Of a stretch of DNA of 64,000 nt, positions 4,722 through 60,885 are shown piece after piece (the first letter of the stretch is position 1; every line of letters begins with the position of its first letter). Source of the DNA: a virus (taxonomy: Duplodnaviria; Caudoviricetes); IMG/VR virus record IMGVR_UViG_3300032135_000291, positions 1-64,000 of that record; one strand, 5' to 3'. The notes below the pieces were generated by a model that was not told where the DNA came from, made no database searches, and saw nothing but the letters and a program-made list of their open reading frames with translations. A program made the position numbers and the translations under genes.

Positions 4722-4731
4722 TGGATACCTT
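4722..4731 (+). promoter_or_regulatory. Class B promoter motif
   Basis: TGGA-TACCTT, 7 nt before ATG 4739. Confidence 0.7.
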
Positions 4732-4738
4732 TGCGGGC

Positions 4739-4873
4739 ATGCCAAAGAAATGCACCGCGCTGCACACCGGTCACGCAACAGCCCGAGGGCTTGCCGCCTG
4801 CCCTGCTTGCACTCCAAACGCTGGCGTCACTCGAGCGTTGACCCCTCGCGCTGCCGACACACCGGTGCGGTAG
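4739..4873 (+). CDS. 44-aa stand-alone Zn-knuckle peptide
   Basis: MPKKCTALHTGHATARGLAACPAC...; leaderless behind class B motif; same C-x6-H-x8-C-x2-C spacing as the 3942 protein. Confidence 0.7.
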   Translation: MPKKCTALHTGHATARGLAACPACTPNAGVTRALTPRAADTPVR

Positions 4874-4909
4874 TCGTCACACTTGACCGGCCAATCGCCG
4901 CTATGATAA

Positions 4910-4921
4910 GTGTGGTAGATC
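4910..4921 (+). promoter_or_regulatory. Class A motif (imperfect)
   Basis: GTGTGG-TAGATC upstream of 4944. Confidence 0.4.
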
Positions 4922-4943
4922 AGTCTACTGAGGGATGTGAAGC

Positions 4944-5294
4944 GTGACGAAGGCTTTGGACGCGAATACCGTTGCGACTCGATCCGTTGTGCAGTTCTGC
5001 GCGCTTGAAGCGGGGTACTCGGTGCTCGAGATCAATAAGTTCACCGATGCGCCGAACTACTACTGCTCCGAGAGGTACTCGACAGGGGTGTTGCGGGCGC
5101 TCACGAATATGCAGCAGGCCACCGACAAGGCGATTCGCGCCACCGTGGTGAACGCCGTCAGGATCGGTGCCCTCACGGTGCCGCAGGCTGCCGCGAAGGT
5201 GGACCTCCCCGAGGCGACCGTCCGCTCGTGGGGCGTTCTTCCGGAATGGGAGCGGTACGCAGCCGAGGCGGATGATCAGAGCCGCGCCGCATAG
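4944..5294 (+). CDS. Hypothetical protein, possible C-terminal HTH
   Basis: SD GAGGGA before GTG; LTVPQAAAKVDLPEATVRSW is HTH-like. Confidence 0.6.
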   Translation: MTKALDANTVATRSVVQFCALEAGYSVLEINKFTDAPNYYCSERYSTGVLRALTNMQQATDKAIRATVVNAVRIGALTVPQAAAKVDLPEATVRSWGVLPEWERYAAEADDQSRAA

Positions 5295-5366
5295 CGCCGG
5301 TCCCGGTTTATCTTCCTGCCCGTAGATCCGGTTTGCAGCCCTCCGTCTCAACCAGATTGAGGGGGC

Positions 5367-5376
5367 TGGATACCTT
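5367..5376 (+). promoter_or_regulatory. Class B promoter motif
   Basis: TGGA-TACCTT-N6-ATG 5383. Confidence 0.75.
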
Positions 5377-5382
5377 GAAGAT

Positions 5383-5883
5383 ATGACCGCTCCACAATGC
5401 TCAGCACCTCTCCAGGGACACGTCCCTGGGTCGCTCTTGCAGCAGACATGCCCGAAGCACGGGCTGGCGTCGGGTCGCACTATCTCGCTCCCGCCGCTCC
5501 TGGTGCCCCCGGCTCCATCTTCCGCACCCGCGTCCGGGGGCGAGGTCGTCACCAACGGTCTTGTGGCTCGCCGCAGTGACACGGACAACTCCTACTTCCT
5601 GGTCATGGCCGAAACGGGCCTCCCTGTGTTCCGGACCGAGCAGCGACGTGTTGCGCGTCGCGGAACAACCCCCGGGCCCGGCAACTTCGAGACCGAAGAT
5701 CAGGCGATCGAGTGGGCACGCGACAAGTACCCGTTCCTGAGTGACGTGTCCTCCAAGATCGCCCGCACCACACCGCGACGCCGCACCTACCGGTGCCCCG
5801 TATGCGACAGCCGGCTCATCCTGACCGAAGATTCGCGACGCATTTGCACGCACTGCGACGGCGTCGAGATCGATCGCTCATAG
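5383..5883 (+). CDS. Zn-knuckle family protein with C-terminal Zn ribbon
   Basis: CSAPLQGHVPGSLLQQTCPKH at the N-terminus; CPVC..CTHC at the C-terminus. Confidence 0.75.
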   Translation: MTAPQCSAPLQGHVPGSLLQQTCPKHGLASGRTISLPPLLVPPAPSSAPASGGEVVTNGLVARRSDTDNSYFLVMAETGLPVFRTEQRRVARRGTTPGPGNFETEDQAIEWARDKYPFLSDVSSKIARTTPRRRTYRCPVCDSRLILTEDSRRICTHCDGVEIDRS

Positions 5884-5919
5884 AACTTGGTCGTGGGGAC
5901 CACAAGGAAGGAAGTAATC

Positions 5920-7020
5920 ATGGCGGCACGGTCGAAGTCGAAGGCTGGCGGTAAGCCGAAGGTTCCTTGCACGAACCCGGGGATCTGCGGCAACACCAAG
6001 AACCACATGGTTGGCACGTTCACGCAGAAGCGCTGCGACGAGATCACGAAGCGCCGCGCTGCCGGCGAGGTCATCACCGCAGAGAACGTCATGAGCGTCC
6101 GCCCTCCGGGCATGGAGGCGAGCGGCGACTTCGGTGCACGTAGCGACGAGGTGAGCGAGAAGATGAAGTCGCTCAAGCAGTCTGCCGAGGCGTGGAGGGA
6201 CTCGCCCCAGGACGCCCTCGACTTCGTGCGGTGGGCCAAGAACTTCACCGACTACTCGCCGTTCAACCGTCTGATGATCCACGTGCAGAACCCTGACGCA
6301 ACCGCTGTCGGCTCCGCGAAGAAATGGGGCGGGCTCGGCCGTGAGGTCGCTGAGGACGAGAAGCCGATCGAGATCTTTGCGCCCGGCATGGGCGGGGAGC
6401 GCGCCAAGAAGGACAAGGACGGCAACGTCGAACGTGACGCTGACGGCAAGCAGGTGATGGAGCGACGCTTCGTCAACCGATTCCGTGCAGTGTCCGTGTA
6501 CGACATCGCGCAGACCACGGGTGACACGCTGCCGGAGATCGAAACTCCGGTCGCAAACCCTGAACTGCTTGAACGTGTCGTCGTCGGACTCGAATCGGAC
6601 TACTTCGTCGCACCCATGGAGGTCGTGGCCGGAGCCGACACCCCAGCGCGAATGCTGGAAGACGGATCGATGGCGTACAACGCGTCTACGGCCGACGAAA
6701 GCCAGCGACTGGTGAACCGCCTCGTCGCGGTCGGTATGTCTGCCAGCGCCCGACTGCGCAAGGACACCGAAGCGCGAATCAAGGACCCCTCACGTCACTG
6801 GGGCGAGGCTGAGCACATGTACGCGGGTATCTCTGCCGCGTGGTCGCTGGGCCAGGATGCTGGCATCGACCTGACGGATCTTGCTGTTCAGAAGATGGCG
6901 GACTACAAGGGCAAGGAGCAGATTGCATCGCTCGCCGCCCACGGTTCGAAGGTCACTGAGCACATCGAGAACGTCCGCAACGGACTGCCCGCGGAGATCG
7001 CTGACGCCCTGGCGTCCTGA
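5920..7020 (+). CDS. ArdC-like ssDNA-binding / antirestriction domain protein with N-terminal Zn knuckle
   Basis: YSPFNRLMIHVQNPDATAVGSAKKW..GR.V...EKPIEIFAP and VYDIAQT are ArdC N-terminal domain hallmarks; SD AAGGAAGG. Confidence 0.75.
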   Translation: MAARSKSKAGGKPKVPCTNPGICGNTKNHMVGTFTQKRCDEITKRRAAGEVITAENVMSVRPPGMEASGDFGARSDEVSEKMKSLKQSAEAWRDSPQDALDFVRWAKNFTDYSPFNRLMIHVQNPDATAVGSAKKWGGLGREVAEDEKPIEIFAPGMGGERAKKDKDGNVERDADGKQVMERRFVNRFRAVSVYDIAQTTGDTLPEIETPVANPELLERVVVGLESDYFVAPMEVVAGADTPARMLEDGSMAYNASTADESQRLVNRLVAVGMSASARLRKDTEARIKDPSRHWGEAEHMYAGISAAWSLGQDAGIDLTDLAVQKMADYKGKEQIASLAAHGSKVTEHIENVRNGLPAEIADALAS

Positions 7021-10664: not shown

Positions 10665-13382
10665 ATGTTCATTGCATACGCACTAGCGTTGCTGACCTCA
10701 CTCGGGTGGGGCGCGTACGCCTTGCGCTGGTACGTGCGAGAGCGCCTCAGCCAACGCGACGCCCGTGACGCGGACGACCGTCAATGGTTCGAGATCATTC
10801 AGGAGTCCGGGAAGAAGGCCGGCCCGTACACCGCGTCATCCTTCGATGGCATGCGTGCGATCTCCCAACTGCTCAACGGCGACATCTCGCTTGCGCCGAC
10901 CAAGGCGCTGCCGAAGGTGTCGTTCGTGTGGGTCCGCTCCGCCGACGACAAGGCGCAGTTGACGCGCCTGTACGTGAGCGCGAGCGAGTCACTGGGCGAA
11001 TCCGGGCTCCCCGCGCTGCGTGCGTACGCCCGCTCGATCGGCGCACGACTTGGCACGCCCACAGTGCTGCGACTCCCGACCGAGAACGTCATCATGGGGC
11101 GACGACGCCACATTGCACTCGGTCAGATGCGGGATAAGGTCGACGAAATCGGGGTTGTCTCCGACACGATCGCTTCCATCGCCAACGCAGTGGCACGCGA
11201 CGAATCGGTCGCCGTCATGATCACCGTCGAAGGCATGGGCGGCTCCGAGCGGTCCATGCTGCATGACGCGGTCGTCGCGGGCGCCTCACGGGGCGCCGGA
11301 CGCAGAAGCAACCTTGCACGCGACTCCACTGGCGAGGCACGCCAAATGGTCGAAGGCTCGGTCCGTTTGGGCTTGGCGGCCGCGAACCACAACGGCGACG
11401 AGCAGACCTGCCGCACCCTCGTGGACTCGGTCGCGTCCGCGACATCAACACTTGGCTACGAGGTGCAGGCCGTTCCCCCGCGCATCGCCCAGTTGCGTTC
11501 CAGCGTCCAATGGGGCGTGCCTGTCGCGATGATGTCTGTCCTCATGATGCTCACCGGCGCTGTCGGCCCCGCGCTGCTGGCGATCGCGCTGCTCGGCGGC
11601 GGTGCCGCTGCACTCGTGTGGTGGCCCGAAGCCGTTAACGGACCCGTGACCCGCATGGCCGCCAGGGGAGAGGTTCTCCTGCCACGCTTCCTGCCGCGAC
11701 CGATGTCGTTGCGTCGCGGCTTTGAACGTGCCCGCCTGCAAATCTCCACCCGCCGCTTCAACAACGCACAGGACGAGGAGGACGTGGACGTTTCCACACC
11801 GTTCCCGTCTCCCAGCGAAGTCTTGTCGGTGCATCACGCCGCGCTGTTCGAGATGACCACCTTCCCGGCCGAGGCGACTTTGACGGCAAGCGACCGGGTG
11901 CAAAGCCGCGGACTGCCCCCGGACATGATCGACGTTGACGAAGGCATCTTCGTTGGCATGTCTGGCACCGGGCAGCCCGTCATGCTCGACATTGAGGACA
12001 TCCACTACAGCCTCTACACGGCTGGCGCCCCGAACTCCGGTAAGTCGAACCTGCTGCTCGTGATGTACGCAGGCATGGTCAAAGCGTCGATTCAGCGCAC
12101 GTCCGGCCTGAGCGTCTCCCCAATCTGGGGCGAGACCAAGGGCGAGGGCGCGTATGACGCATGGATGATCGCCCGCAACCACCCTGGGGCCATCTTCGTC
12201 GACACGCACAATCCTCGCTCCGGTGCGCGACTCGCGCTCGAGGGGCCTCGACTGTCCGACGGCGCGCCTGTGCCGAAGGTGGTCAGCAACTGCACCGCCC
12301 TGGTGTCGAGCATGCAGGCCGCGTACGGCGACGGGGTCAAGGGCCAGGCCCGCGAGATTCTCGACAACGTGCTGCGCTGCTCCATGCTGATGACGCCCGA
12401 CGAGATCGCCTTCGCGGGGCTTGGCGACCTGGTGAACGCGAAGAAGCCGAACATCATGGAACTGTCGTTCTACCTGCTGCAAGGTGACGCTCGTATCGAC
12501 CCATCCGCCAAGATGATCAAACTCGGCGGCACCCTGAGCGCGTCGCTCGGGCTGCGAGAGCAGGCCCTGTCACGTGCCATCGGGTCAATGTCCAGGTTCT
12601 GGGATCCGGCTACGCGCCGCACCTACTTGGAGCGCATCTCCACCGCGCTGAACAAGTTGAACGACATGCGTAACGCCCCGATGCTGTGGACGCCCGACGC
12701 CGCCCGCAAGGACGTGTACCTCGGCCAGTTGGTGCGTGCGTTCGCCCCGTCCGTCGTCAACATGGGCTCGTTCTATGACCCCATCTCGAAGCAGTTCGAC
12801 CAGTCGATCGACCGCTCTGTTTCGCAGCGGCTGATCCGCTCGTTCAACTACCTGCTGTGGGACTACATCAAGGGTCACTGCAACGGCTGGCAGGAGCAGC
12901 GCAAGAGGATTCCGATGTTCTTCGACGAGGTGGCCGACGTCGCAAGCAACGCCACGGGTGATGACGTCCCGAACACCCTCGAAGAAGGTACGAAGGAGGG
13001 TCGTTCACGCGGAGCGGCGTACTTCCTCGGCTCGCAGTACCCATCACAGATGCCGGAGATGGTCCGCCACCAGGTGCTCGCCTCCCGCGGCAAGTTCTGG
13101 TTCGGGCTGCAGAACCCGACGGACCTCACCCTGGCAATCAGCGACCTCATGGTCGACGACGTGAACGCCGAGGGCGCGATCACGCCCAGCAACATCAAGT
13201 CGCTGTCTAACGGTGTGTGCTTTGCGACGCTGCCGCGCCACAACGCGGTGACCCCACCCACGTTGCTGCGTGTGCCGTACGCCCCCGAGTGGAACAAGAT
13301 CCTGTTCGCCCCGGAGAACGGCGACACCAACGACGCGGTGGCCGACTACGCAGAGTTCACGGCGCGCAAGGTGGCGTCATGA
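10665..13382 (+). CDS. Coupling-protein-like (TraD/VirD4/HerA superfamily) membrane ATPase
   Basis: TM segments, Walker A GAPNSGKS, Walker B FFDEVAD, EGRSRGAAYFLGSQYPSQM. Confidence 0.75.
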   Translation: MFIAYALALLTSLGWGAYALRWYVRERLSQRDARDADDRQWFEIIQESGKKAGPYTASSFDGMRAISQLLNGDISLAPTKALPKVSFVWVRSADDKAQLTRLYVSASESLGESGLPALRAYARSIGARLGTPTVLRLPTENVIMGRRRHIALGQMRDKVDEIGVVSDTIASIANAVARDESVAVMITVEGMGGSERSMLHDAVVAGASRGAGRRSNLARDSTGEARQMVEGSVRLGLAAANHNGDEQTCRTLVDSVASATSTLGYEVQAVPPRIAQLRSSVQWGVPVAMMSVLMMLTGAVGPALLAIALLGGGAAALVWWPEAVNGPVTRMAARGEVLLPRFLPRPMSLRRGFERARLQISTRRFNNAQDEEDVDVSTPFPSPSEVLSVHHAALFEMTTFPAEATLTASDRVQSRGLPPDMIDVDEGIFVGMSGTGQPVMLDIEDIHYSLYTAGAPNSGKSNLLLVMYAGMVKASIQRTSGLSVSPIWGETKGEGAYDAWMIARNHPGAIFVDTHNPRSGARLALEGPRLSDGAPVPKVVSNCTALVSSMQAAYGDGVKGQAREILDNVLRCSMLMTPDEIAFAGLGDLVNAKKPNIMELSFYLLQGDARIDPSAKMIKLGGTLSASLGLREQALSRAIGSMSRFWDPATRRTYLERISTALNKLNDMRNAPMLWTPDAARKDVYLGQLVRAFAPSVVNMGSFYDPISKQFDQSIDRSVSQRLIRSFNYLLWDYIKGHCNGWQEQRKRIPMFFDEVADVASNATGDDVPNTLEEGTKEGRSRGAAYFLGSQYPSQMPEMVRHQVLASRGKFWFGLQNPTDLTLAISDLMVDDVNAEGAITPSNIKSLSNGVCFATLPRHNAVTPPTLLRVPYAPEWNKILFAPENGDTNDAVADYAEFTARKVAS

Positions 13383-15410: not shown

Positions 15411-18400
15411 GTGAGAAACGGCATGTTCGCTCCGTGGGAGGGGTGGCGCAAGGCTTTGGGTGGCGTGACTGCCGCCTTCATGGTGCTACTCGTCATCGCC
15501 TTCTCCATCCCACTGGGCATCGTCGCAGTCGGTGCGATGTTCCTCGCCGCGCAAATCTGGAAGAGTCCGATGGACTCGCCGAACTACGACCGCATGCAGT
15601 ACACGATGATGACCCGGTCCTACCGTGTCGCCCTGTTCTTCGTCACCGTGAAGCAGCAGGCGGCCGTGCTGTTCTCCCCGGTCATCCTCCTCGGCGCCGG
15701 CCCGCCCCGCGAGGACCCCGACCACGACTTGCAGCCAGGCTTCTGGCCGCCGTTCCGGCTTTCATCCTGGTGGAGCATGCTGGGCGCTCTCGCCCTCGCT
15801 CCGCTGGAAATCCTGATCAGCCCGATGCGCATGTCCGTCATCGGGGGGTCACTGCCGTGGTTCATTGCGACGGCCCTTGCGATCCCAGGCTGGTACGCGT
15901 TCTTCCAGGTGCTAGCCGACGCACGCAGGCTCGCCCCCGACAAGGACGCCGGCGCACTGGGCGACCCGCCACCGGCGACCATGCTGAACAAGATCGACGA
16001 CCACATCGAACTGCATCCGTCGCTGATTCGCTCAGCGGCCTTCGGGGCAATCCCCGTCGTCATCGTGATCATCCTGTGGATCACCGTGAAGTGGCCCTGG
16101 TGGGTGACGCTCATCGCCGTGGTCCTGTTGTTCTCCTTCACTGCTGCGATCCTGTGGTCACGCAACCTGATGACCGAGTACCGCTCCGCCTGGGTGGAGC
16201 GTGAAGCCCTGGCCGAGAACTGGCAGAGCATCTGGATGAGCCTCCTTCCAGTGAGGGCCGGATCCCCGCTGTTCAGCAACGAGTTCGACCTGCCAAGCGT
16301 CGACGAGTTCGAGGCCGAACTGGCGCGCTGGCACCGCGAGATGGACGAGTCTGACGACCTTGACGCCTCGCCGCCCGAGTACGAGGTGCTCGTCAAGTGC
16401 GCCAACTTCCGATACGCCCCCGGACAGACCTACGAGACTGTGGCCGGAATGACAGAGGGACTACGTGGCGCGCTCAACGCAGGCCTCGTCGGCGTCATCC
16501 CGTTCGGCGAGACGGACCCGCTCGGCAACGAGATTCCCGGCACCGTCAACGCGTCGTTCTTCCGTGTCTTCTACTCGGAGCAGACGACCGAACTGCCTCA
16601 CCTTCTCGACCCCAATGCGAACGCGTGGGCCACCCGCCTGTCGATCCAAGCGAAGATTCTCGAACCGTTGGCCCAGGTGCGCGGCATCGGCCGGTGCATC
16701 GTCGCGAACTTCTACCTGGTGACCCGCCCCGAGTCCCCGCAGACGATCATCTGCGTCAAGTTGCGTCCGCGCGACCCCGGCGTCTCCGTCGACGTCTTCC
16801 TCGAACGCCTGTCCGACATTCAGCGCGCCGCCAACGTCCGGTGGGTGCGCGTGGGCCAGGGCAACGACGAGGGCGAGATCGTCATGTATCTGGGCGACGA
16901 ACCCGTCATTGACGTCACGATGTACAACCGGCCCGCCAAGCGGGAGAACGACACGATTGACCGCATGAACTGGCTGTACTACTTCCACTCGAACCAACTG
17001 CGTGGCGCCAGCGGAACGCCGCGCCTGGTTCGACGCGAGCCCACAACGCCTGTGGTGGACAAGTTGACGTTCTCCCTACCGCCCGGCCTGCCCATGAAGA
17101 AGATCAAGGCGGCCGACGAGGCGATCGCGACGTCGTCCGGCAACGAGTTCATCGAGATCGCCCTGTTGCAGCCACACGACGACACCGCGCCGACAGTTCG
17201 CAGCCGCGGACCTGCGCAACCCAAGCCGGACACCGGCACCCAGTTTTCCATCATCGCCGCGAAGGCCAACCCGCTGCGGAGGGTGTTCAACTTCACCGAC
17301 TTCACTGACAAGGTGCTGACGGGACGCGAGAAGGGCGTGGCGAAGATCAACTGGGCCACAGGCGTGCTGTCTGACGACTCGTTGGCGTACGACGACTGGG
17401 GTAATTCGGACAATCCGCACTTATTGGTAGCCGGTGCATCAGGAGCCGGCAAATCCGTAGTCATGTCGTCGCTCATCCTTCAACTCGCAGCCAACAACGG
17501 CCCAGGGGAGGTTCGCATCTGGATGGTCGAACCGAAGAACGAGATGCAAATTTATCGCGACCTGGATGTCACGGAGCGCTTCGTCGACACGTGGTCTCCC
17601 AACGGGGAGTTCGTGAAGAACGCAGCGGACATGGTCGACGACGCGGTCGCTGAGATGAACCGCCGCAACGAAGCCTTCGTCACCCACCCCAAGCGGCCGA
17701 AGCAGTTGAAGAAGGCGCGCGAGATCGCCATTCGCGAGTCGGAGCAAGCGGGCACCCCACTCGAACGCCACCCCCTCTATATGCCGTACCTCTTCATCAT
17801 CATCGAGGAGTGCGCATCGCTGTTCTCCGGGGTCCGCAAGGAGGAGCGCGACGACCAAATGCGACTCATGGGCAGCACCACAGAACTAGCGCGCAAGGCT
17901 CGTTCTGCCGGCATCCACCTCATCCTCGCCACACAATATCCAACCAAAGAGAGTCTGCCGGTGACGATTCGTAACCAGTGTCGCTCTGTGGGAATGAAGT
18001 GCCAGAACATGGTGGCATCGCTCGTCGTCATTGGTGAGCCCGGCCTCGAAGACATCAACATCAAAGGCTGTGGCAAGGTGCGGGTCAACGGCGAGATGCG
18101 GCTGTTCCGTGGCTTCTGGGTGCAGGACGGCGACCCCGATTACGGGGAGCAGAACGACATCATCTCGACCCTCGGCAAGTTGCCCTCGAACAACGGGCAG
18201 TCCTCTGCGATGCGCAAGGCAGGCGAGACCCCACGCATCAAGTTGCCCGAACTGGGGGAGAGCGTCTTCTCGCTGTGGGACGAGTCTGCCAGCGGCGGCC
18301 GCGCGCAGGCGTCTATGGTCGCCGACGGCAAGGGCATGTACACGCCAGCGGAAGTGGCCGCCGCCGAGAAGCCAAAGCCGGAACGCCCGGAGGACATCGA

Positions 18401-18434
18401 CAGACTCATGCGGCAGGCGCCCACGGGGCGCTAG
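15411..18434 (+). CDS. FtsK/SpoIIIE-family DNA translocase with N-terminal membrane domain
   Basis: PHLLVAGASGAGKS, WMVEPK, IIIEECA, RKARSAGIHLILATQYP. Confidence 0.9.
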   Translation: MRNGMFAPWEGWRKALGGVTAAFMVLLVIAFSIPLGIVAVGAMFLAAQIWKSPMDSPNYDRMQYTMMTRSYRVALFFVTVKQQAAVLFSPVILLGAGPPREDPDHDLQPGFWPPFRLSSWWSMLGALALAPLEILISPMRMSVIGGSLPWFIATALAIPGWYAFFQVLADARRLAPDKDAGALGDPPPATMLNKIDDHIELHPSLIRSAAFGAIPVVIVIILWITVKWPWWVTLIAVVLLFSFTAAILWSRNLMTEYRSAWVEREALAENWQSIWMSLLPVRAGSPLFSNEFDLPSVDEFEAELARWHREMDESDDLDASPPEYEVLVKCANFRYAPGQTYETVAGMTEGLRGALNAGLVGVIPFGETDPLGNEIPGTVNASFFRVFYSEQTTELPHLLDPNANAWATRLSIQAKILEPLAQVRGIGRCIVANFYLVTRPESPQTIICVKLRPRDPGVSVDVFLERLSDIQRAANVRWVRVGQGNDEGEIVMYLGDEPVIDVTMYNRPAKRENDTIDRMNWLYYFHSNQLRGASGTPRLVRREPTTPVVDKLTFSLPPGLPMKKIKAADEAIATSSGNEFIEIALLQPHDDTAPTVRSRGPAQPKPDTGTQFSIIAAKANPLRRVFNFTDFTDKVLTGREKGVAKINWATGVLSDDSLAYDDWGNSDNPHLLVAGASGAGKSVVMSSLILQLAANNGPGEVRIWMVEPKNEMQIYRDLDVTERFVDTWSPNGEFVKNAADMVDDAVAEMNRRNEAFVTHPKRPKQLKKAREIAIRESEQAGTPLERHPLYMPYLFIIIEECASLFSGVRKEERDDQMRLMGSTTELARKARSAGIHLILATQYPTKESLPVTIRNQCRSVGMKCQNMVASLVVIGEPGLEDINIKGCGKVRVNGEMRLFRGFWVQDGDPDYGEQNDIISTLGKLPSNNGQSSAMRKAGETPRIKLPELGESVFSLWDESASGGRAQASMVADGKGMYTPAEVAAAEKPKPERPEDIDRLMRQAPTGR

Positions 18435-18497
18435 GCGATCTCGGCGACGCGCGGGGCTACCACACTCCATTTCCGATAGTTCTGATATTCTTTCTTC

Positions 18498-20456: not shown

Positions 20457-20527
20457 GGCGCTAAACGATCAAGGCGCCGCGCGGGACTACCACACCTCAA
20501 ATGCACCAAATCTGCTACGATCACTAA

Positions 20528-24474: not shown

Positions 24475-24715
24475 TTGCTCCTTGGTGCGGAACCCGAGAG
24501 TTCGCTCGGCAAGGAGACAGGACGAGTCCAGCCCTGTCGCTCGGGAGGTTCGGCCCCGCTGACGCGCGCGAGGTGATGGCGGTGAGCCGTGGCGTTTGGC
24601 GGATAGAGACCCGCGGCGAGCATCTCGTCGCCCACCGTCCGTAAGGGCAGGGACTGCGAGCGGCACTTTGGTTAAGCGGTCGGCTAGTCGCCGCCAGCGT
24701 CCGACACGAAGCGAG

Positions 24716-24725
24716 CGGATACCTT
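24716..24725 (+). promoter_or_regulatory. Class B promoter motif
   Basis: CGGA-TACCTT-N6-ATG 24732. Confidence 0.7.
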
Positions 24726-41893: not shown

Positions 41894-41905
41894 GTGTGGT
41901 AGGCT
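41894..41905 (+). promoter_or_regulatory. Class A promoter motif
   Basis: GTGTGG-TAGGCT upstream of dnaB. Confidence 0.65.
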
Positions 41906-43642: not shown

Positions 43643-44404
43643 CTAGGCTGCCGCATCCCTCATCAGATGATCCGACTGTGCTTCCTGTGTGACCAGGTTC
43701 GCGATCTGCGCGGCGCGGTCCTCGAAGTCTTTGCGCATGCCCTTGAGCATGCCGCCGTTGGAGTACGACCGGCGCATCGCGTTGAACCTGTTGATCATGA
43801 GGTGGCGCTCGCGCTCATCCAGTCCGCCCCAGACCCCGAACGTGTCGTTGCCGATGGTGCTTGCGGTGAGGCATTCGAGGCGGAAGGAGCATCCCTGGCA
43901 CTCGTTCTTGGCTTCGTCGTACTTGGCTCTGTTGCGCAGCACGATCTGAGTGAACTTGGCGATCGAGATGCCAGCGTCCTTTTTCTTATCCTGATTCGTG
44001 TTGACCTCGGCCTCGTCCTGGTTGGCGTCTTCATCGCCCAGCGGGTCGAGCGTCGGCTCCCAGAGGATTGCGTCTAGGTCGGCATCTGACGGGAAGAAGA
44101 TTTCGGGGTTCACGTCGTCGGACTGGCAGTTGGCTGTTGACGGCATCGTCGGTGGCTTCACGTGGTGCTTGGTCGCGAGGAGCCATGTCAGGAATGCGTG
44201 CTCGACGAAGTGCGTCACGACGTTGTTCGCAAGTCCGCCGAGGGCAACGTACGAGCGCCCGGTGGGAGGCCTGTGGCGAATGGTGATCCCGTCGCCAAGA
44301 AGGCTCTCGCTGATGAGAGCGCTGATGCTTTCCGATCCATCACTGTCACGCGGGGACTCGACCCCCGCGTGGAGGTCGGTGTCTGCGGAGCGGGTGCTGA
44401 TCAT
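43643..44404 (-). CDS. whiB: WhiB family transcriptional regulator with long extension and insertion
   Basis: C..EIFFP..AKNECQGCSFRLEC..FGVWGGLDERER. Confidence 0.9.
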   Translation of the reverse strand: MISTRSADTDLHAGVESPRDSDGSESISALISESLLGDGITIRHRPPTGRSYVALGGLANNVVTHFVEHAFLTWLLATKHHVKPPTMPSTANCQSDDVNPEIFFPSDADLDAILWEPTLDPLGDEDANQDEAEVNTNQDKKKDAGISIAKFTQIVLRNRAKYDEAKNECQGCSFRLECLTASTIGNDTFGVWGGLDERERHLMINRFNAMRRSYSNGGMLKGMRKDFEDRAAQIANLVTQEAQSDHLMRDAAA

Positions 44405-44454: not shown

Positions 44455-44466
44455 AGACTACCACAC
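44455..44466 (-). promoter_or_regulatory. Class A promoter motif
   Basis: GTGTGG-TAGTCT upstream of whiB. Confidence 0.65.
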
Positions 44467-44535: not shown

Positions 44536-44545
44536 TGGATACTCT
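44536..44545 (+). promoter_or_regulatory. Class B promoter motif (leadered)
   Basis: TGGA-TACTCT, then SD GAGGA and ATG 44581. Confidence 0.65.
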
Positions 44546-46164: not shown

Positions 46165-48096
46165 ATGAGCACGCCAGGCGTCACGCGCACCATCCCCGCC
46201 GGGGGCATCGCATGCCTCAGCAACGGGCGGTGTGGAGAGTCGACCGGCTGGCACCACATGGGCTCCGACGCGCACAAGCGCTGCATCCACGCTGCCGAGG
46301 CACTGGATGCGACCGGAGCGCGGGTCAGGGACGCCGTGACTGCGGGCAATATGCGGGCCAATCAGCAGCCAGGTGACCACGAGCGTCGTCCGCTGCGCCG
46401 ACTGGAGCAGGACGAAAGCGAACTCCTCAACAGCACCCGCGCGATGGCCTTGAAGTTCCTGCCGTTCTACTCGCACATGATGTACCGCGTGCGCCCTGTC
46501 GCCGTAGACGAGGAGCCGACGATCCTGCCCGATGGCACACCCCAGTGGGAGATGCGTGCCGCTATCTCTCGGGACTGGCGCCTCATGCTCAACTTTGACT
46601 GGATGCGCTACGAGTTCGAGCAGGGCTACGAGAACAACAAGGACCGTGTTGCCAAGGCAATGATCGAGTCAGACGTCACGCCGACCGACGAAGCGGTTCG
46701 CCGCGGCTGCGACACGGCGACGTCCGTCCAACTCGGGAAGGTGCTCCTCCACGAGATGGGGCACGCGATGTACAACACGTGGGAAGTCGCCGAGGAGAGG
46801 AAACTCGACGGCCAGACCCTGAACCGCGCAGAGGACGCTGTCATCAACAACGCGTTGCGCGTGCTGGGTCACGGCAAGGCCCCGCTCGAGAACAAGGACA
46901 TCAACGGCGAGTTCCTCCCGAACGCTGTCTACGGTGGAACCGTGGAGTGTGACGACCCCAACCACTCATGGCACTACATCGACCCGGAGACGGGCGAAAC
47001 GTCTTCGCGTTGCTCGTATGAGCAGACGATTTGGCACTACTACGAGCGCCTCGACAAGCAGGAGAAGGAAGACTCAAAGCAGGGGTCAACCGGCGACGGC
47101 GACCCCGACGGTGCGCCAGACGCCGCGAAGGGCGAGGCAAAGGGCGATCAGAAGGGCCAGGCTGGCGGCTCGCAAAGAACCGAAGGCTCTCCCTCTGGTT
47201 CCACGCCCGGGGCCGAAGGCGACGGTGACGGCGAAGGAGGCGAAGGCGCCAAGCCCTCTGACGCATGTGGACGCAAGGCTGCCGAGAAGTACGAGGACGA
47301 CCCATACGAGAAGGGGAGCATCAGCGAGTCGCAGAAGCAGGACTCGCTCGACGTGACCGCATCGGAACTTGACGAGTGGGGCAAGGAGAACGAGGAACGC
47401 GCCAAGAAGGCAGGCTTCGGCTCCGATTCGATGGCCCGCAAGTGGGCCCAGCACCGCCGCAAGATCGACGGGATTCACTGGGACGCGCTGCTCAAGAGGA
47501 CCATACGCAAGACCGTGGAGTCCAAGAAGAGCACGCGCGAGACCTACACAAAGGTTCGCCGGCGCGACGCCTCCAACTCCGGGATCCTGCGTCGCGGCAC
47601 CAAGGCGGGCTACATGCCCTCGATCGCCGCGGCAGTCGACACCTCGGGTTCGATGTCGCCAGACGACCTCTTCGCCGCGTACAACAGCGTGTACTCCGTC
47701 ATCAAGAGGACGGGCATCAACCACCTGGACGCGTTCGCTGTCGACTCCGAAGCGAAGACCAAGCCGATTGCGATCAAGAAGGCCGAAGACTTGGCTCCGC
47801 TACTTCGCGGTGGAGGCGGTACTGACATGTGCGCCGGCATTGAGGTGGCAGCACAGGCGGACAAGGACGTCTGCATCGTCTTCACTGACGGAGTCGTCCC
47901 GTGGGGCAAGATGGCCGAGCGCCCGAGTGACACCAAGAAGATGGACGTGATCATCGCCATCATCGCGGAGAACGATGATGCGTGTGCGCGCTTGGCGGAC
48001 GACGTGCCCTCCTGGATGAGCACGGTCAAGATCAACAAGGAACTGCTCGACGAGGGCCGCGAGAAGAAGACCCCCAAGGACGGGTACCTTGGCTAG
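46165..48096 (+). CDS. HExxH metallopeptidase-like plus vWA domain protein (DUF2201-type) with N-terminal Zn knuckle
   Basis: CLSNGRCGESTGWHHMGSDAHKRC; LLHEMGH; VDTSGSM, GGGGTD, FTDG. Confidence 0.85.
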   Translation: MSTPGVTRTIPAGGIACLSNGRCGESTGWHHMGSDAHKRCIHAAEALDATGARVRDAVTAGNMRANQQPGDHERRPLRRLEQDESELLNSTRAMALKFLPFYSHMMYRVRPVAVDEEPTILPDGTPQWEMRAAISRDWRLMLNFDWMRYEFEQGYENNKDRVAKAMIESDVTPTDEAVRRGCDTATSVQLGKVLLHEMGHAMYNTWEVAEERKLDGQTLNRAEDAVINNALRVLGHGKAPLENKDINGEFLPNAVYGGTVECDDPNHSWHYIDPETGETSSRCSYEQTIWHYYERLDKQEKEDSKQGSTGDGDPDGAPDAAKGEAKGDQKGQAGGSQRTEGSPSGSTPGAEGDGDGEGGEGAKPSDACGRKAAEKYEDDPYEKGSISESQKQDSLDVTASELDEWGKENEERAKKAGFGSDSMARKWAQHRRKIDGIHWDALLKRTIRKTVESKKSTRETYTKVRRRDASNSGILRRGTKAGYMPSIAAAVDTSGSMSPDDLFAAYNSVYSVIKRTGINHLDAFAVDSEAKTKPIAIKKAEDLAPLLRGGGGTDMCAGIEVAAQADKDVCIVFTDGVVPWGKMAERPSDTKKMDVIIAIIAENDDACARLADDVPSWMSTVKINKELLDEGREKKTPKDGYLG

Positions 48097-49195
48097 CAAG
48101 ACCTCGGTGGCGCCAGTGCTGTGCGACAACCCGTGGTGCGGCACCAAGACGCGATCGCACATGTCCGCGTTCGCGAAGCGACGCTGCGACCAGAGCAAGG
48201 GTGCACAAGTACGCGTCCACGCCTCTCAGGTCGCCACACAGAAGCATTCGAGTCGTCAGAGCGCTGACGAGGCCCAAGCAGTATTTGGTGGCGACACAGA
48301 GCAAGGTACCGTCGGCTACAGCACGCTTCGTGACGGGCACTTCGAGGGCGCGGTGTTCGACAACGTCGTTCTCGCCGAGGCGCAGGGCGCGAACTTCGAG
48401 GGCGCTACCTTCGGCGAAGTCGTGTTCGACGGAGGGGTCATCGAGTGCTCCTTCGCGGGCGCCTCCGGCTTCGACGTGCGGATCCAGAAGGTCATCTCCG
48501 ACACACGCATGGACGACATGCGTGTCGCCGGATTGCACGTCGAATCGGGGACCGAGGTGCGAGACCTGTCCGTGTCCGGGGCGCTCATCAACGACTCAAC
48601 GTGGGGCAGGCATAGCGACGTCAAGGACTCGTCCTTCCGGTTCGCATCCATGCGCCGCAGCACCTTTGGAGAGTCGATCCAGTTTCGCAACTGCGACTTC
48701 ACCGGCGTCGACCTGGCCCGGTCCGAGTTCGCGGGATCGTACGCAGGGAAGTCGACCTTTTCCAGCGTCATCATCGAGCGGGCGAACTTCTCGGGAGTCG
48801 ACCTCACCAACGTGACCTTCGCGGACGTCCCGCTCGCCGAAACGATCTACTTCGTCGACGGCGACACGCTCCCCATGCTGAACCCCGGAACGCTGGACCC
48901 GTCCGACTTCGGCCGCGAGTTCATGACCCGGGCACTGACCGACGAGCAGTACTCCGACTTCGTCACGAATCTGGGCGCCTCCGAGGCGGAAGTACGCGGG
49001 GCGATGTCACGACTGTCGCCCGCTTTCGTGCCGGTCTACGAGGACGGTGCTGTGGGCACTCGAGGCGAGTTGTTGCGGCGGGCCATGCTTGGCGACGACG
49101 TGGGGATGCTGACAAACATCCAAGCGGAACTATGGGACGCGTCACGCCCCCATAACCGAATGCTGGTCGAGTCTCCGGACGCTTTGTACTCCTGA
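48089..49195 (+). CDS. Pentapeptide-repeat protein with N-terminal Zn knuckle
   Basis: CDNPWCGTKTRSHMSAFAKRRC; ANFEGATF, CDFTGVDLARSEF, ANFSGVDLTNVTF. Confidence 0.75.
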   Translation: MASKTSVAPVLCDNPWCGTKTRSHMSAFAKRRCDQSKGAQVRVHASQVATQKHSSRQSADEAQAVFGGDTEQGTVGYSTLRDGHFEGAVFDNVVLAEAQGANFEGATFGEVVFDGGVIECSFAGASGFDVRIQKVISDTRMDDMRVAGLHVESGTEVRDLSVSGALINDSTWGRHSDVKDSSFRFASMRRSTFGESIQFRNCDFTGVDLARSEFAGSYAGKSTFSSVIIERANFSGVDLTNVTFADVPLAETIYFVDGDTLPMLNPGTLDPSDFGREFMTRALTDEQYSDFVTNLGASEAEVRGAMSRLSPAFVPVYEDGAVGTRGELLRRAMLGDDVGMLTNIQAELWDASRPHNRMLVESPDALYS

Positions 49196-50787: not shown

Positions 50788-50849
50788 CGGGGTGTGGCGC
50801 AGTTTGGTAGCGCGCGTCGTTCGGGACGACGAGGTCGTGGGTTCAAATC
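50788..50849 (+). pseudogene. 5' fragment of tRNA-Pro(CGG) truncated in the T-loop
   Basis: 62 nt with 2 differences from 50925-50986; 3' acceptor strand absent. Confidence 0.85.
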
Positions 50850-50924
50850 TTATGAACACTGTGACCCGTTAAGATAAGTTAATAGGCAGGTACAATTGTC
50901 ACCGGCATGTTGGTGACAGTGCTT

Positions 50925-53816: not shown

Positions 53817-53889
53817 GCGGATATGGCTCAGTTGGCAGAGCGTCACCTTGCCAAGGTGAAGGCCGCGAGTTCGAATCTCGCTATCCGCT
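53817..53889 (+). tRNA. tRNA-Gly(GCC)
   Basis: TCACC-TTGCCAA-GGTGA. Confidence 0.93.
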
Positions 53890-54876: not shown

Positions 54877-54886
54877 TGGATACCTT
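54877..54886 (+). promoter_or_regulatory. Class B promoter motif
   Basis: TGGA-TACCTT-N5-ATG 54892. Confidence 0.72.
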
Positions 54887-54891: not shown

Positions 54892-55494
54892 ATGAGCAAG
54901 TGCACCTCGAGAACCGGCCGTCACCTCCCCGGTTCGTGGACCGAGCAGGAGTGCCCCGAGCACGGCTTGCTTGCCGCCAGGAGGGCCACCGCGGCGGCCC
55001 CCACAGCGAGCATGAGCGCCCCTCAGCCGGCTCCGGGACGTGACCAGCCGCCCGCCTACGAAGGGACGCTGGGGAGCCTTCCGGAAGAGATCGTAGAGGA
55101 CCTGATTTCTCGTCGTTCGCGACGAGGTGCGAGCCGAGAAGAGAGCGCGGCGCTCCTCGGAGAGTTCGTGCGGTCACACTCCGGCGCCAACCTCGCATCC
55201 GCGCTGGTCTACAACAACTTCGCCAGGACGCCGAACGTGGACCGTATCGTTCGCGACATCGACGCGACCCGGCCGCCAACCCGCCGCCCGTCACCGAAGC
55301 CGCAGTCAGCGCGGATCGAGACGCTACGAGGCGGAGACACGTTCGAGGACGGAGAGTTCCGCGCTCGCGAAGAGGTCCTCGAAGTCACCGACCAGGGCGA
55401 CAACATCTACGTCACCACAGACGCCTCCCAGGACGCCGGTGCGGGTGCATACCGGTTCCGCAAGGGCGAGACCGTTTGGGCGACCACCGCGTAA
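54892..55494 (+). CDS. Zn-knuckle family protein within the tRNA array
   Basis: CTSRTGRHLPGSWTEQECPEH. Confidence 0.75.
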   Translation: MSKCTSRTGRHLPGSWTEQECPEHGLLAARRATAAAPTASMSAPQPAPGRDQPPAYEGTLGSLPEEIVEDLISRRSRRGASREESAALLGEFVRSHSGANLASALVYNNFARTPNVDRIVRDIDATRPPTRRPSPKPQSARIETLRGGDTFEDGEFRAREEVLEVTDQGDNIYVTTDASQDAGAGAYRFRKGETVWATTA

Positions 55495-55723: not shown

Positions 55724-56152
55724 ATGCCCACATGCAATATCCGTCACGAACCAGGGTCGGACGCACAGAAGAAGTGCGCCGTGCACGGCCGTCGAGTGGG
55801 CCGCGGGGTGGCAGCGAGTCTCACGCCGCCAATGCTTCGGCAGAAGACTCCGGAGGCCGCGATCCCGGAGTTGCCCGACGACGTGGCAGAGGGCCTTCTT
55901 CGCCGCCGCACGCAGAAGGGGTACTCCCACGATGCGTCGGTCGAACGGCTTGCGGAGATTGCGTCCGACGCCGAACTATCAGCAGTGGAAGTCAAGTACG
56001 CCTTGGTCAACGAGGACTTCGAGGACAGCGTCGTCAGTGCCGGGCTCGTGAGCGAGATGGTGCGGGGCGGACGCAGGATCAAGGACCTTTCGGCTCAGAT
56101 CGAGGCGGCAGAGTCGCGCTCTCCCGCGAAGGTCGCCGAAGCGACTGACTAG
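55724..56152 (+). CDS. Zn-knuckle family protein within the tRNA array
   Basis: MPTCNIRHEPGSDAQKKCAVH; SD AGGAG. Confidence 0.72.
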   Translation: MPTCNIRHEPGSDAQKKCAVHGRRVGRGVAASLTPPMLRQKTPEAAIPELPDDVAEGLLRRRTQKGYSHDASVERLAEIASDAELSAVEVKYALVNEDFEDSVVSAGLVSEMVRGGRRIKDLSAQIEAAESRSPAKVAEATD

Positions 56153-57113: not shown

Positions 57114-57123
57114 TGGATACCCT
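57114..57123 (+). promoter_or_regulatory. Class B promoter motif (leadered)
   Basis: TGGA-TACCCT, then SD GAGGAGG and GTG 57154. Confidence 0.65.
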
Positions 57124-57153: not shown

Positions 57154-57729
57154 GTGCCCGCAGAGTGCCGAGTGAAACACGTCCCAGGCTCGCAGTCAGA
57201 GAGCCTGTGCCGGACGCACGGCGCGCGCGGCCGCGGACGTGGCTTCCGCCCTCCGGCACCCACACAGGAGACGGTGCAACGCGGATCCGTGGAGATGCCG
57301 GCCTGCGACGGGGACTCCTCCGAGCAGCGGGCCGAGATGCTTGCCGCGAACGGACCGATCGACACCCTTGCGGCGCAGCAGGGGCTGCTTCCGCTGAATG
57401 ACCGCGGCGTCTCGCTGCGCAAGGCGGCCACCGGTAAATGGCTCGTCCGCCTGACAATGCTCGAAGGCGAACCCGAGGCGGGGGAGTACGGGTTCGGGCG
57501 CACGCCCGAGGAGGCCTTCTACGCGGCGCTGACCGACTACACCGACGCTCCCGACGGCGCGGACGTCCTGATCAGCCGGGATCCAGAGAACTCGCTCGTA
57601 TCAGCGTCGGACGTCAGCGCGGTGTACGTGCTCGACCTGCATGACGAACGCGACTCCGAAGCGGCCAGGCCCAGCGACGATTCGGCCCGTGCATGGCTCT
57701 GTCGTCCTGATGGAGTGTTCTCCCTCTAA
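57154..57729 (+). CDS. Zn-knuckle family protein within the tRNA array
   Basis: CRVKHVPGSQSESLCRTH. Confidence 0.72.
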   Translation: MPAECRVKHVPGSQSESLCRTHGARGRGRGFRPPAPTQETVQRGSVEMPACDGDSSEQRAEMLAANGPIDTLAAQQGLLPLNDRGVSLRKAATGKWLVRLTMLEGEPEAGEYGFGRTPEEAFYAALTDYTDAPDGADVLISRDPENSLVSASDVSAVYVLDLHDERDSEAARPSDDSARAWLCRPDGVFSL

Positions 57730-57943: not shown

Positions 57944-58340
57944 GGGGGCGAAATGGCATCGACAGTGCCGAGCAGCCTATTGCATCGAGCCGAGGAACTG
58001 GCTACCCACACCTCGTAAATCATGGGGCGGCCAAGCGAACCGTCGCGTAGATATCGCTCCGTCACCAGCGTGTGACGGGCGGCTCTGAGTGGGACCACCC
58101 TGGCCACACAGAATGCCGTTCGAGACCAGGGTGCGGCCGCTGCGGGTTTCCGCGACGTAGCGGGAGGACAACGGCGGAAACCGAGGCTCAACACCCGGGG
58201 TCACACTCGGGTCTCACTGCCTCAGCGCTTCGGCGTGAAGGTGAGTGGTGGCGGACGCGACCAGGATGCGTACGAAACGCTCGTAGACGTGTAGTGGGAT
58301 GGCGAAGTTCTGGATCGGAGTTCGACTCTCCGCGCCTCCA
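57944..58340 (+). ncRNA. ssrA: tmRNA
   Basis: 5' GGGGGCGAAATGGCATCGAC, 3' GGAG-TTCGACT-CTCC-G-CGCCTCC-A, G3:U70 acceptor stem, about 397 nt. Confidence 0.88.
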
Positions 58341-58377
58341 CAAAACGGATTACTCACGTAGTCCCGTGTTCCAGTTT

Positions 58378-59289: not shown

Positions 59290-59380
59290 CAGAACACTCG
59301 TCCACCGTGGCAGCAGAGGCTCGGTATCCGTACGTGGTGTCGGGCCTCTGCTGCGTCTTGGCCCAGGTGTTGCCTGAAAA

Positions 59381-59392
59381 GTGGGGTAGTCT
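59381..59392 (+). promoter_or_regulatory. Class A promoter motif variant
   Basis: AAAA-GTGGGG-TAGTCT upstream of 59422. Confidence 0.55.
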
Positions 59393-59421
59393 TTGCATAG
59401 CCCACCACACTCCATCGGAGG

Positions 59422-60216
59422 ATGACAATGACCGTCGTAGACCTCGACAGGACTCAGGCCTACATCCACCCCCACCATGGGGTGGCTTTGCTTGACGGTC
59501 CGACTGTCGAGCGGAGCGTCAAGGGACAACAGGTGCTCATGCAGCCGCTCGCCGCGGCGCAAGCACAGTCGTGGGCGGCGCTCCTCGGTTTGCCGGGCGG
59601 GGCGATCTTGGCAAACGCCGAGGTGCACTCGCTCGTACCCGTCTCCTTGCTCGACTCAGAGGCATGCTCCTGGGCGCGGTGCCCGCGCGTGGCGCTGGAA
59701 GACATCGTCCATCACCTGGACGTGGAGCCCGTGGACATGTGGATCGACCAGATCGACGCGCCGGCCCCGGCGAAGATGCTCAACGTTTGTCAGTCCCAAA
59801 TGGTGATGGTCGGCAGGGGCGACGACTCGACGGCCGAACTCTCCGAGTTGGTGCGCCAGGTCGCCGACTACTTGACGATGTGGCACCTCGTGGGGCTGTA
59901 CGGGGTCCTTGATCACGTTGTGGTCAGGAGAGGCCTCGCAGAGACCTTCGAGGAAGCCTTCACTCATGGCGGGCCATTTTGGAGCAGGTGCATCGCCCAG
60001 ACGTACACGATGCGTGTCTCTGGCCGCGACCTGATTGCGCTGCTCGGACGCGTCGTCTCGGTGATTGCGCTCAGCAGCGACCTGCGGCCCGAGCAGGTCG
60101 CTTCGACGCTCGAACTCGCCATCTCGAACCGGGTGCGGGCTCGCATCCTGGAACTTCGCGACCATGCGGCTGGGTGCCGCGCCAGCGTAGCAAATGTCGA
60201 TCCAACCAAGTGGTAG
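59422..60216 (+). CDS. Hypothetical protein
   Basis: Long ORF; SD GGAGG. Confidence 0.65.
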   Translation: MTMTVVDLDRTQAYIHPHHGVALLDGPTVERSVKGQQVLMQPLAAAQAQSWAALLGLPGGAILANAEVHSLVPVSLLDSEACSWARCPRVALEDIVHHLDVEPVDMWIDQIDAPAPAKMLNVCQSQMVMVGRGDDSTAELSELVRQVADYLTMWHLVGLYGVLDHVVVRRGLAETFEEAFTHGGPFWSRCIAQTYTMRVSGRDLIALLGRVVSVIALSSDLRPEQVASTLELAISNRVRARILELRDHAAGCRASVANVDPTKW

Positions 60217-60248
60217 TTTTGTCCTGATATTCTGAAAGGAAGTGCACC

Positions 60249-60509
60249 ATGTCCGAGAGCCCATTCAGTGGAATCGGCGAGACCGCAAGTTCCACCCCTG
60301 ACCAGCCCGCACAGGCCCCGAAGAGCAATGTTCGCGCGCACCTGAGGGCGATCGTCGGCACGATCCTTGTACTCGTCGGCTTCGCCTGGAAGTTCTTCGC
60401 CGGTAGCGCCTCTGGCGCCGACAGCAGCACTCTGGTCGACGCCGCATGGCTCGCCCCGATTGTGGTTGGTGGCGCGCTGCTCGTATGGAGCATGAGGCGT
60501 CGCACCTAA
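60249..60509 (+). CDS. Small two-TM membrane protein
   Basis: Two hydrophobic helices; SD AAGGA; AAGTGG-TAGTTT upstream. Confidence 0.65.
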   Translation: MSESPFSGIGETASSTPDQPAQAPKSNVRAHLRAIVGTILVLVGFAWKFFAGSASGADSSTLVDAAWLAPIVVGGALLVWSMRRRT

Positions 60510-60532
60510 GCGCGGTCTTCTCGCCCTTTGAG

Positions 60533-60544
60533 GTGTGGTAGTTT
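60533..60544 (+). promoter_or_regulatory. Class A promoter motif
   Basis: GTGTGG-TAGTTT-N6-ATG 60551. Confidence 0.7.
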
Positions 60545-60550
60545 TGACTC

Positions 60551-60865
60551 ATGACTAACGCAACTCTTGGAGAATTTAACGCTACCCTCGGCGAGTTTCT
60601 TGCATGGTCCGGTAAGCCGGCCCGTGAAGGCAGTGCACTTGAACGTGCGGCCATCGCGCTCGTGGAAGAACTCGCAGGGCAGTTCCTGAAAGAACGAAAC
60701 GACGCGATGATCGCTCTTGACGCAAATGCACCCTTCGAGCCCTTGCACGTCATTGATGGCGGCCTCACGCAGAAGCGGACCGCCGAAGAGATCCAGTGCA
60801 TGGCCGACCACCCGAGTGCCCGCGGGCACGGGGCGCAACGGTTGCAGGCGCTACCAGTTCGGTAG
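60551..60865 (+). CDS. Hypothetical protein (leaderless)
   Basis: ATG 6 nt after the class A -10. Confidence 0.6.
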   Translation: MTNATLGEFNATLGEFLAWSGKPAREGSALERAAIALVEELAGQFLKERNDAMIALDANAPFEPLHVIDGGLTQKRTAEEIQCMADHPSARGHGAQRLQALPVR

Positions 60866-60875
60866 GGCAGGCCCG

Positions 60876-60885
60876 CGGATACTCT
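60876..60885 (+). promoter_or_regulatory. Class B promoter motif (leadered)
   Basis: CGGA-TACTCT, then SD GAGG and GTG 60907. Confidence 0.6.

Follow-up and report, generated by a model that had tools for sequence, protein, structure and literature searches.

The DNA analysed here, a stretch of 64 kb (the window), forms the first part of the 74,915-bp IMG/VR record IMGVR_UViG_3300032135_000291 (G000), which is classed as linear and has a G+C content of 62-66% and a completeness of 29% according to CheckV. WhiB and Lsr2 are actinobacterial markers; the element is probably a giant plasmid-like replicon of an actinobacterium, and likely conjugative. In the window, 12 exact copies of the motif YGGATACYNT, named the class B box, are found where 0.53 are expected, and none of 100 dinucleotide shuffles reaches 12. 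All of them are on the plus strand, and the whole record shows 13 forward copies and no reverse copy. The first-pass annotation of this DNA had reported 12 copies and had placed each directly upstream of a knuckle gene; the exact motif is present at every one of these positions and all 12 products carry an N-terminal Cys/His knuckle.

Class B boxes and the genes behind them

The last T of the box lies 5-7 nt before the start codon at nine of the 12 sites, and exactly 6 nt before it at seven, as the measured coordinates confirm. The boxes with the 6-nt spacing are 5367-5376 (TGGATACCTT), in front of the knuckle gene 5383-5883; 24716-24725 (CGGATACCTT), in front of 24732-25784; 25808-25817 (TGGATACCAT), in front of 25824-26864, which encodes LRV/HEAT repeats; 26937-26946, 27668-27677 and 28957-28966 (all TGGATACCGT), in front of 26953-27663, 27684-28406 and 28973-29833, respectively; and 40899-40908 (TGGATACTCT), in front of 40915-41874, which starts with GTG instead of ATG. 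The box at 27668 begins 4 nt past the preceding stop codon, the box at 28957 begins 8 nt past the lsr2 stop codon, and the box at 40899 is divergent from a class A box (see below) at 40856-40866 (-). The spacing is 7 nt at 4722-4731 (TGGATACCTT), where the box precedes the ATG of a 44-aa open reading frame (ORF) that contains only the knuckle (4739-4873), and 5 nt at 54877-54886 (TGGATACCTT), which is found right after tRNA-Asp and precedes the ATG of the knuckle gene 54892-55494.

The three remaining boxes of the window are more distant from the start codon. The box at 44536-44545 (TGGATACTCT) lies 35 nt upstream of an operon that starts at 44581, with a predicted transcription start site (TSS) at an A around 44552 and a 29-nt leader that includes the Shine-Dalgarno (SD) sequence GAGAGGA. 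At 57114-57123 (TGGATACCCT), right after tRNA-Arg, the distance is 30 nt, the predicted TSS is a G around 57130, and the SD sequence GAGGAGG precedes the GTG of the knuckle gene 57154-57729. At 60876-60885 (CGGATACTCT) the distance is 21 nt, the predicted TSS is an A around 60892, and the SD sequence GAGAGG precedes the GTG of the knuckle gene 60907-62268. Beyond the window, a 13th exact box on the plus strand is found at 71891, again with the 6-nt spacing, and heads the knuckle gene at 71907, which starts with ATG; a degenerate copy (AGGATACAAA) precedes the knuckle gene at 73561 on the minus strand. The other GGATAC sites of the plus strand (29489, 36101, 41788 and 52521) end without YNT, as had been noticed before. 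Across the whole record, the arrangement TACYNT-N6-RTG is present at eight of 13 copies, and two more show N5 or N7.

The record contains 19 knuckle genes: 13 behind an exact box, one behind the degenerate box on the minus strand, four inside operons and one at 3942. Those inside operons (5920, 46165, 48089 and 55724) follow box-headed genes; an SD sequence of their own is present in three. The gene behind the box at 5367 is followed by an ArdC-N knuckle gene (5920-7020) with its own SD; the operon behind the box at 44536 encodes a MoxR AAA protein (44581-46146), a VWA/DUF2201 protein (46165-48096) and a pentapeptide protein (48089-49195), all three with the knuckle; and the box at 54877 has a further knuckle gene downstream (55724-56152), followed by a tRNA block. 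Only the gene at 3942-4718 (+), which encodes LRV repeats and has no class B box, is outside the box-led units; here the ATG is adjacent to the stop codon of the gene for the ResIII helicase (1148-3940). Within the window, this distribution between box-headed and operon-internal genes is the one that the first-pass annotation had described.

The knuckle of the 13 box-headed proteins takes the form C-x3-7-H-x8-10-C-x2-(H/C) or C-P-x4-C-x5-7-H-x9-C. In the AAA protein it is invariant in seven metagenomic orthologs (C8, C14, H22 and C32). The remainder of the knuckle proteins is unrelated, and contains LRV/HEAT repeats, MoxR AAA, VWA/DUF2201, pentapeptide or ArdC-N domains, or belongs to no known family. 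A recent tandem duplication accounts for the genes at 26953 and 27684, whose first codons are nearly identical. Several knuckle proteins also share a common tail, ...LAL(Y/S)PNP, encoded at 25760-25784, 26840-26864, 29809-29833 and 41850-41874.

Conservation of the box in a related element

The relative, G001 (IMGVR_UViG_3300027271_000063; 69,499 bp, 66% G+C), is mostly syntenic with G000, and the proteins of both records are about 50-60% identical (51% for the AAA ortholog). It shows six exact class B boxes, all forward and all in front of knuckle genes. Three of them have the N6 spacing and three lie farther upstream; two of the latter starts show a clear SD sequence and the third start is uncertain. 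A TANNNT hexamer at N5-7 before RTG is present at 10 of the 13 copies of G000 and at three of the six copies of G001. Over the 19 copies of the two records the nine specified bases are invariant, and a purine is found 6-8 nt past the hexamer in every case. In G001 around 53850-53877 (+), a knuckle gene (MAAECTIEHQ...) is located behind CGCTACCCT-N6-ATG, which retains the hexamer and the spacing and has GGA replaced; it may be a decayed or alternative class B form.

In five orthologous upstream regions, anchored identity ranges between 23 and 34% in the 80 nt upstream of the box and between 25 and 42% downstream of it, which is chance level for the composition, while the 10-mer itself is 80-90% identical with mismatches at the Y and N positions only. 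These values bear on the idea that the box has no function and was carried along by the duplication of promoter-plus-knuckle cassettes. The family clearly grows by duplication, as the tandem pair 26953/27684 illustrates; however, nine bases are invariant in 19 copies although the proteins of the two records diverge by about 40-50%, and the downstream proteins are unrelated apart from the knuckle. Because the spacer and flanks are at random identity and the 10-mer is not, a passive relic of duplication is ruled out, and we give this explanation hardly any credence.

Further relatives were also searched for. None came up when 25 kb were compared by megablast with plasmids and phages, and scans of IMG/VR with the AAA protein or its alignment, the alignment of the type IV coupling protein (T4CP)-like ATPase or the sigma factor alignment recovered G001 only. 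A metagenome scan returned the G001 contig again and nothing further, and a genome scan gave generic AAA proteins only; five to six further metagenomic relatives exist for the AAA and sigma proteins. A pattern scan of IMG/VR for box-N6-ATGAGC found 95 single, evidently random matches, none with a knuckle. No match was obtained by tblastn of a knuckle protein against plasmids, and an Atlas look-up of knuckle residues 1-45 gave no usable match. No published description of the class B box was found in the literature searched.

Class A boxes head a different set of genes

A second box, TGTGGTAGNNT (class A), which is private to the two records, was spotted on reading the upstream regions of all called genes. 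The window contains six exact copies against 0.06 expected, and a total of 10 and 12 copies are found in G000 and G001, respectively, on both strands and following gene orientation. In the window they are located at 29858-29868 (+; TGTGGTAGCCT), 7 nt before the ATG of an M50B peptidase gene (29876-30550); at 30584-30594 (+), before a DNA methylase gene (30608-31639) whose unit leads to the sigma factor gene; at 40856-40866 (-), 6 nt before the ATG of an IstB-like ATPase gene (40187-40849, -); at 41895-41905 (+), before a DnaB-like helicase gene (41940-43439); at 44455-44465 (-), heading a WhiB-domain gene (43643-44404, -) and divergent from the class B box at 44536; and at 60534-60544 (+), 6 nt before the ATG of the ORF 60551-60865. 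An SNF2 helicase gene and others are also headed by class A, and some class A genes are of leaderless type too, with a spacing of N6-7. Looser copies are found at 4911, 15378, 57921 and 60209, of which 57921 is right before the tmRNA.

A knuckle gene is downstream of 19 of 19 class B boxes and of none of 22 class A boxes in G000 and G001 (Fisher p = 4e-12); the regular expression used for the knuckle missed two variant knuckles, and both were checked by eye. Across these 144 kb, the class B box is not equally frequent in front of genes outside the knuckle family. With this specificity, and with the box alone kept in the orthologous upstream regions of the relative, the earlier proposal of a dedicated promoter-like signal that marks a co-ordinated regulon gains indirect support from the comparison of the two records. 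Neither box is enriched in two distant megaplasmids of 1.18 Mb in total (Curtobacterium, 607 kb, and Euzebya, 572 kb), which share the T4CP/FtsK/M23 module, and class A has no copy at all in them.

Upstream of both DUF4379 paralogs (18440-18497 and 20470-20527) lies the conserved word G(G/A)CTACCACAC, which reads as a reversed class A core without T-7 and may be an operator or an antisense promoter. The two paralogs are also behind generic leaderless hexamers, TATTCT-N6-ATG and TACGAT-N6-GTG.

Promoter-like geometry and predicted leaderless starts

In TACYNT-N6-RTG, the last T falls at position -7 when the first base of the start codon is counted as +1. In Actinomycetota, the TANNNT -10 element of leaderless sigma-A promoters ends 6-7 nt before a 5'-terminal AUG or GUG, and in mycobacteria the mutual exclusion between a -10 element near the start and an SD sequence is a defining criterion of leaderless genes (Shell et al. 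2015, PMC4633059). The same exclusion is observed here: predicted anti-SD pairing at the N5-7 starts is weak (-3 to -4 kcal/mol, with two at -7). Of five distant starts tested, four pair strongly (-8 to -12 kcal/mol); the remaining one, in G001, was scored a few nt off its ATG. Pairing at the operon-internal knuckle genes is -6 to -10 kcal/mol. A start-proximal -10 and an SD sequence are mutually exclusive in this set, which agrees with the actinobacterial leaderless arrangement that the first-pass annotation had recognized in the motif.

A Shine-Dalgarno reading of the box itself was rejected, on the weak anti-SD pairing and on the true SD sequences that are separate from the box at the distant sites. 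A wider action at the RNA level was also considered, in which the box would be an unusual ribosome-binding site or translational enhancer, or a site at which a nuclease cuts polycistronic RNA into leaderless mRNAs. Two thirds of the copies keep a fixed distance from the start codon, and the cassettes are so tightly packed, with the box beginning as little as 4 nt after the preceding stop, that read-through transcripts would contain it. However, six copies in the two records lie 15-55 nt from the start with a normal SD sequence between, so the box is not tied to the start codon; it pairs weakly with the anti-SD, shows no local structure, and has exactly the sequence and spacing of a -10 element. 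Furthermore, according to Shell et al. (2015, PMC4633059), leaderless mRNAs are made by transcription and not by processing. An RNA-level role is therefore very unlikely.

No -35 partner was found either in a position-by-position information table or by 4/5-mer enrichment between -45 and -8, where the best word had p = 0.01 before correction for 1,280 tests. Folding of 120-nt windows around the 19 sites does not exceed that of shuffled sequences (mean z = -0.08). A single-stranded DNA (Frpo-type) leading-region promoter, which in conjugative plasmids is made by a long hairpin of the transferred strand, or a structured RNA was rejected on this lack of excess folding, and Rfam finds only tRNAs and the tmRNA. 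A generic sigma-70 two-hexamer scan and an intrinsic-terminator scan of 24000-30000 gave nothing above shuffles. Judged from these sequence features, the class B box is very probably a promoter.

The proposed mechanism

On balance we favor the view that class B is a private, -35-independent promoter class of extended -10 type, which would produce mostly leaderless mRNAs for one regulon. The six 3' bases of the box would be the -10 hexamer, of the actinobacterial TANNNT type, and the four 5' bases, YGGA, would occupy the extended -10 position without a canonical TGn and without a -35 element. RNA polymerase would open the hexamer and start at the purine 6-8 nt, usually 7 nt, downstream of the last T. 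At about two thirds of the copies this purine would be the first base of the ATG or GTG, which gives a leaderless mRNA, and the remaining copies would give a leader of 15-55 nt with a normal SD sequence. Since a leaderless gene has no ribosome-binding site, each of them would need its own box, which leads to head-to-tail promoter-plus-gene cassettes. The regulon would be formed by the genes for the N-terminal Cys/His knuckle fused to ArdC-N, MoxR AAA, VWA/peptidase, pentapeptide and LRV/HEAT moieties, whereas the replication and regulator genes would use class A (TGTGGTAGNNT), a canonical TRTGn-TANNNT extended -10. The host primary sigma factor plausibly reads class A, because TGTGG-TAGNCT is a textbook Gram-positive extended -10, and would in this way drive the gene for the element sigma factor; this sigma, or another element-encoded specificity factor, would then read class B.

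Candidate readers of the class B box

The element encodes one sigma-70-family protein (32432-33400, +), very divergent, with regions 2-4, which is the candidate reader of class B. Each of the two records has a single sigma gene. In G001 it is in an operon behind class A, and in G000 it follows the class A methylase unit (30584) and has a degenerate box of its own (TTGATAGCAT). Its lineage has seven members, in metagenomes only, and is the same size as the lineage of the knuckle AAA protein. Because its gene sits behind a canonical class A box, the element sigma is the most economical candidate reader. The specificity factor of class B is, in our estimation, somewhat more likely than not to be encoded by the element; its identity with the sigma at 32432 is a tentative assignment, and the cascade from host sigma to class A, and from the element sigma to class B, although the most economical scheme, is put forward with similar reserve.

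Several points weigh against this reading. The hits of the sigma factor to the FliA/WhiG, SigB/F/G and RpoD families are all far below the cut-off, and its specificity is therefore not predictable from them; its region 4 is normal, yet class B has no -35 element. TAC-type hexamers are acceptable to primary sigma factors too, and TACGAT-N6-GTG precedes a gene without knuckle at 20528. The comparison sample is formed by two partial records with one retrievable relative, and CheckV puts these at 26-29% of a whole genome, so further sigma factors or regulators may sit in the unsampled part. The earlier statement that the motif marks only knuckle genes stands for the first gene behind each exact copy, and beyond that it has to be relaxed. 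The boxes at 54877 and 57114 are inside the tRNA array and may feed downstream tRNAs. In addition, a near-copy, GGATACCTA-N5-ATG at 74827-74835 (+), which is beyond the window in G000 and follows a C-rich non-coding stretch, heads an ORF that is cut by the contig end and has 25 readable residues, among which no knuckle is seen; this near-copy is the sole candidate exception to the association between box and knuckle.

Class B could instead be an ordinary -10-only promoter of the host primary sigma, with YGGA and C-10 as the overlapping site of an element regulator. This regulator could repress the promoter, with induction of the zygotic type, or it could work on sigma-A as an activator or adaptor, as the WhiB-like protein might. 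TACYNT satisfies TANNNT, a -35 element is missing from many actinobacterial sigma-A promoters (PMC8635444), PafBC is an adaptor able to reprogram sigma-A in this phylum, the specificity of the element sigma is not given by its family hits, and in both records a WhiB gene is arranged divergently to the class B box that heads the AAA operon. However, WhiB-like proteins bind sigma region 4 near -35, where class B carries no information; the conserved bases adjoin the hexamer and extend into it, with no upstream site of the -26 or -35 type; neither dyad symmetry nor a second half-site is seen in the flanks; and the PafBC consensus, tGTCgg-N10-tAN3T, is absent. We regard a primary-sigma promoter with an overlapping regulator site as the main rival reading, possible and rather unlikely.

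Comparison with known promoter systems

Extended -10 or "-16 region" promoters of Gram-positive bacteria have the consensus TRTGn-TATAAT, with TGn in mycobacteria. The class B box is like them in being independent of -35 and in carrying its information directly upstream of the hexamer, but YGGA-TAC shifts the TG by one base and GG at -15/-14 replaces the canonical TG. T-15 G-14 is thus present in class A, whose TGTGG-TAGNCT fits the consensus exactly, and absent from class B, which has G-15 G-14 A-13 in 19 of 19 copies; on account of these bases and the invariant C-10, class B is not a canonical TGn promoter. Group 3 promoters of the SigB/SigF/SigH type, in Actinobacteria and Firmicutes, have a -10 GGGTAY and require a GTTT-type -35. 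Aligned in register, the class B GGATAC and GGGTAC agree in five of their six positions, and the weak family hits of the element sigma include SigB/F/G and FliA/WhiG; however, class B has no GTTT-like -35, and the bipartite structure of these promoters is absent.

Element-encoded sigma factors that read temporal promoter classes are known from SPO1 (gp28 and gp33/34) and T4 (gp55, late TATAAATA). The present element resembles these systems in its short single-box private promoters, its two classes with two gene sets, and its sigma gene behind the host-type class. It differs in that the second class is tied to an N-terminal protein tag, not to a morphogenetic or late module, and in that its mRNAs would be mostly leaderless. 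The start-associated sequences of cluster K mycobacteriophages, which contain a ribosome-binding-like GGAG and were proposed to act in translation, are likewise conserved words that some of the genes carry a few bases ahead of the start codon, whereas class B has no SD character and shows -10 geometry.

With the actinobacterial leaderless sigma-A promoters (PMC4633059), class B shares TANNNT, the 6 nt to the start, and the lack of SD and -35 elements. It differs from them in fixing four more upstream bases and hexamer positions 3-4, which are degenerate in generic sigma-A promoters, and in being confined to one gene family and one element lineage. The PafBC (RecA-NDp) "sigma adaptation" promoters (tGTCgg-N10-tAN3T; PMC8635444) are also actinobacterial, have a canonical -10 and no -35, and define a regulon. 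A PafBC-dependent promoter was nevertheless rejected, since the GTC at -26 is absent from class B (19-site alignment, columns -12 to -7) and from class A.

Leaderless TANNNT promoters and element-specific promoter classes are already established, and the advance here is a variant of that principle. Short single-box promoters seem to serve at least two separate transcription programmes of this element, and one programme is reserved for about one third of its genes, all with the same N-terminal zinc-type module. The box offers an inexpensive computational way to find the complete regulon in related elements, and a clean case for testing how extended -10-only promoters are read by a divergent sigma or adaptor; it also opens a way to the function of the knuckle tag. 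A two-part addressing system, in a new family of giant conjugative-type elements of actinobacteria, can be imagined, in which a private sigma switches on, via private leaderless promoters, exactly the knuckle-tagged genes (anti-restriction ArdC-like, DNA-mimic pentapeptide, MoxR/VWA and repeat proteins), and the tag docks their products to one partner, for example the FtsK/T4CP-type transfer machine of the element for delivery into a new host. Such a system is speculative and, in our opinion, improbable; if it were true, promoter class and protein tag would mark one functional set at the DNA and protein levels.

Gene content of the element

Other genes of G000 encode an M23 peptidase, the two DUF4379 zinc-finger proteins, Lsr2 and GyrB/GyrA, and DnaG, RecA, the SNF2 helicase and an exonuclease are encoded beyond the window. 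The T4CP-like ATPase (10665-13382), of 905 aa, is about 25% identical to "type IV secretory system conjugative DNA transfer" proteins of actinobacterial megaplasmids, and has no match among 50,697 phage records. The FtsK/SpoIIIE protein (15411-18434) has 1007 aa. The same module, made up of ParA, a T4CP-like protein, DnaB, an FtsK-like protein and an M23 peptidase, is carried by the megaplasmid pEDY32-46I of Euzebya pacifica with identities of about 25%, and G001 has its ParA gene at 2576-3349. No virion genes were found in the element. Its content of T4CP-like ATPase, FtsK-like protein and M23 peptidase fits a transferable element, as suggested by the first-pass annotation, better than the IMG/VR "virus" label; alternatively, it may be a phage-plasmid. 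At the compared place, only G001 shows a TnpB/IS605 OrfB-type gene (26170-27423, -) and a GmrSD-C/HNH gene (27961-28743).

G000 carries 35-36 tRNAs and a tmRNA (57944-58343, +; Rfam RF00023, 62 bits), which has the class A-like box CGTGGTAGACT at 57921 directly in front. The 36th tRNA (50791-50861, +) was found by Rfam with 36.2 bits and is absent from the ARAGORN list. The translation-support set of the element is large, with the tmRNA, an RF-1-domain (ArfB-like) ORF at 196-633 and 36 tRNAs.

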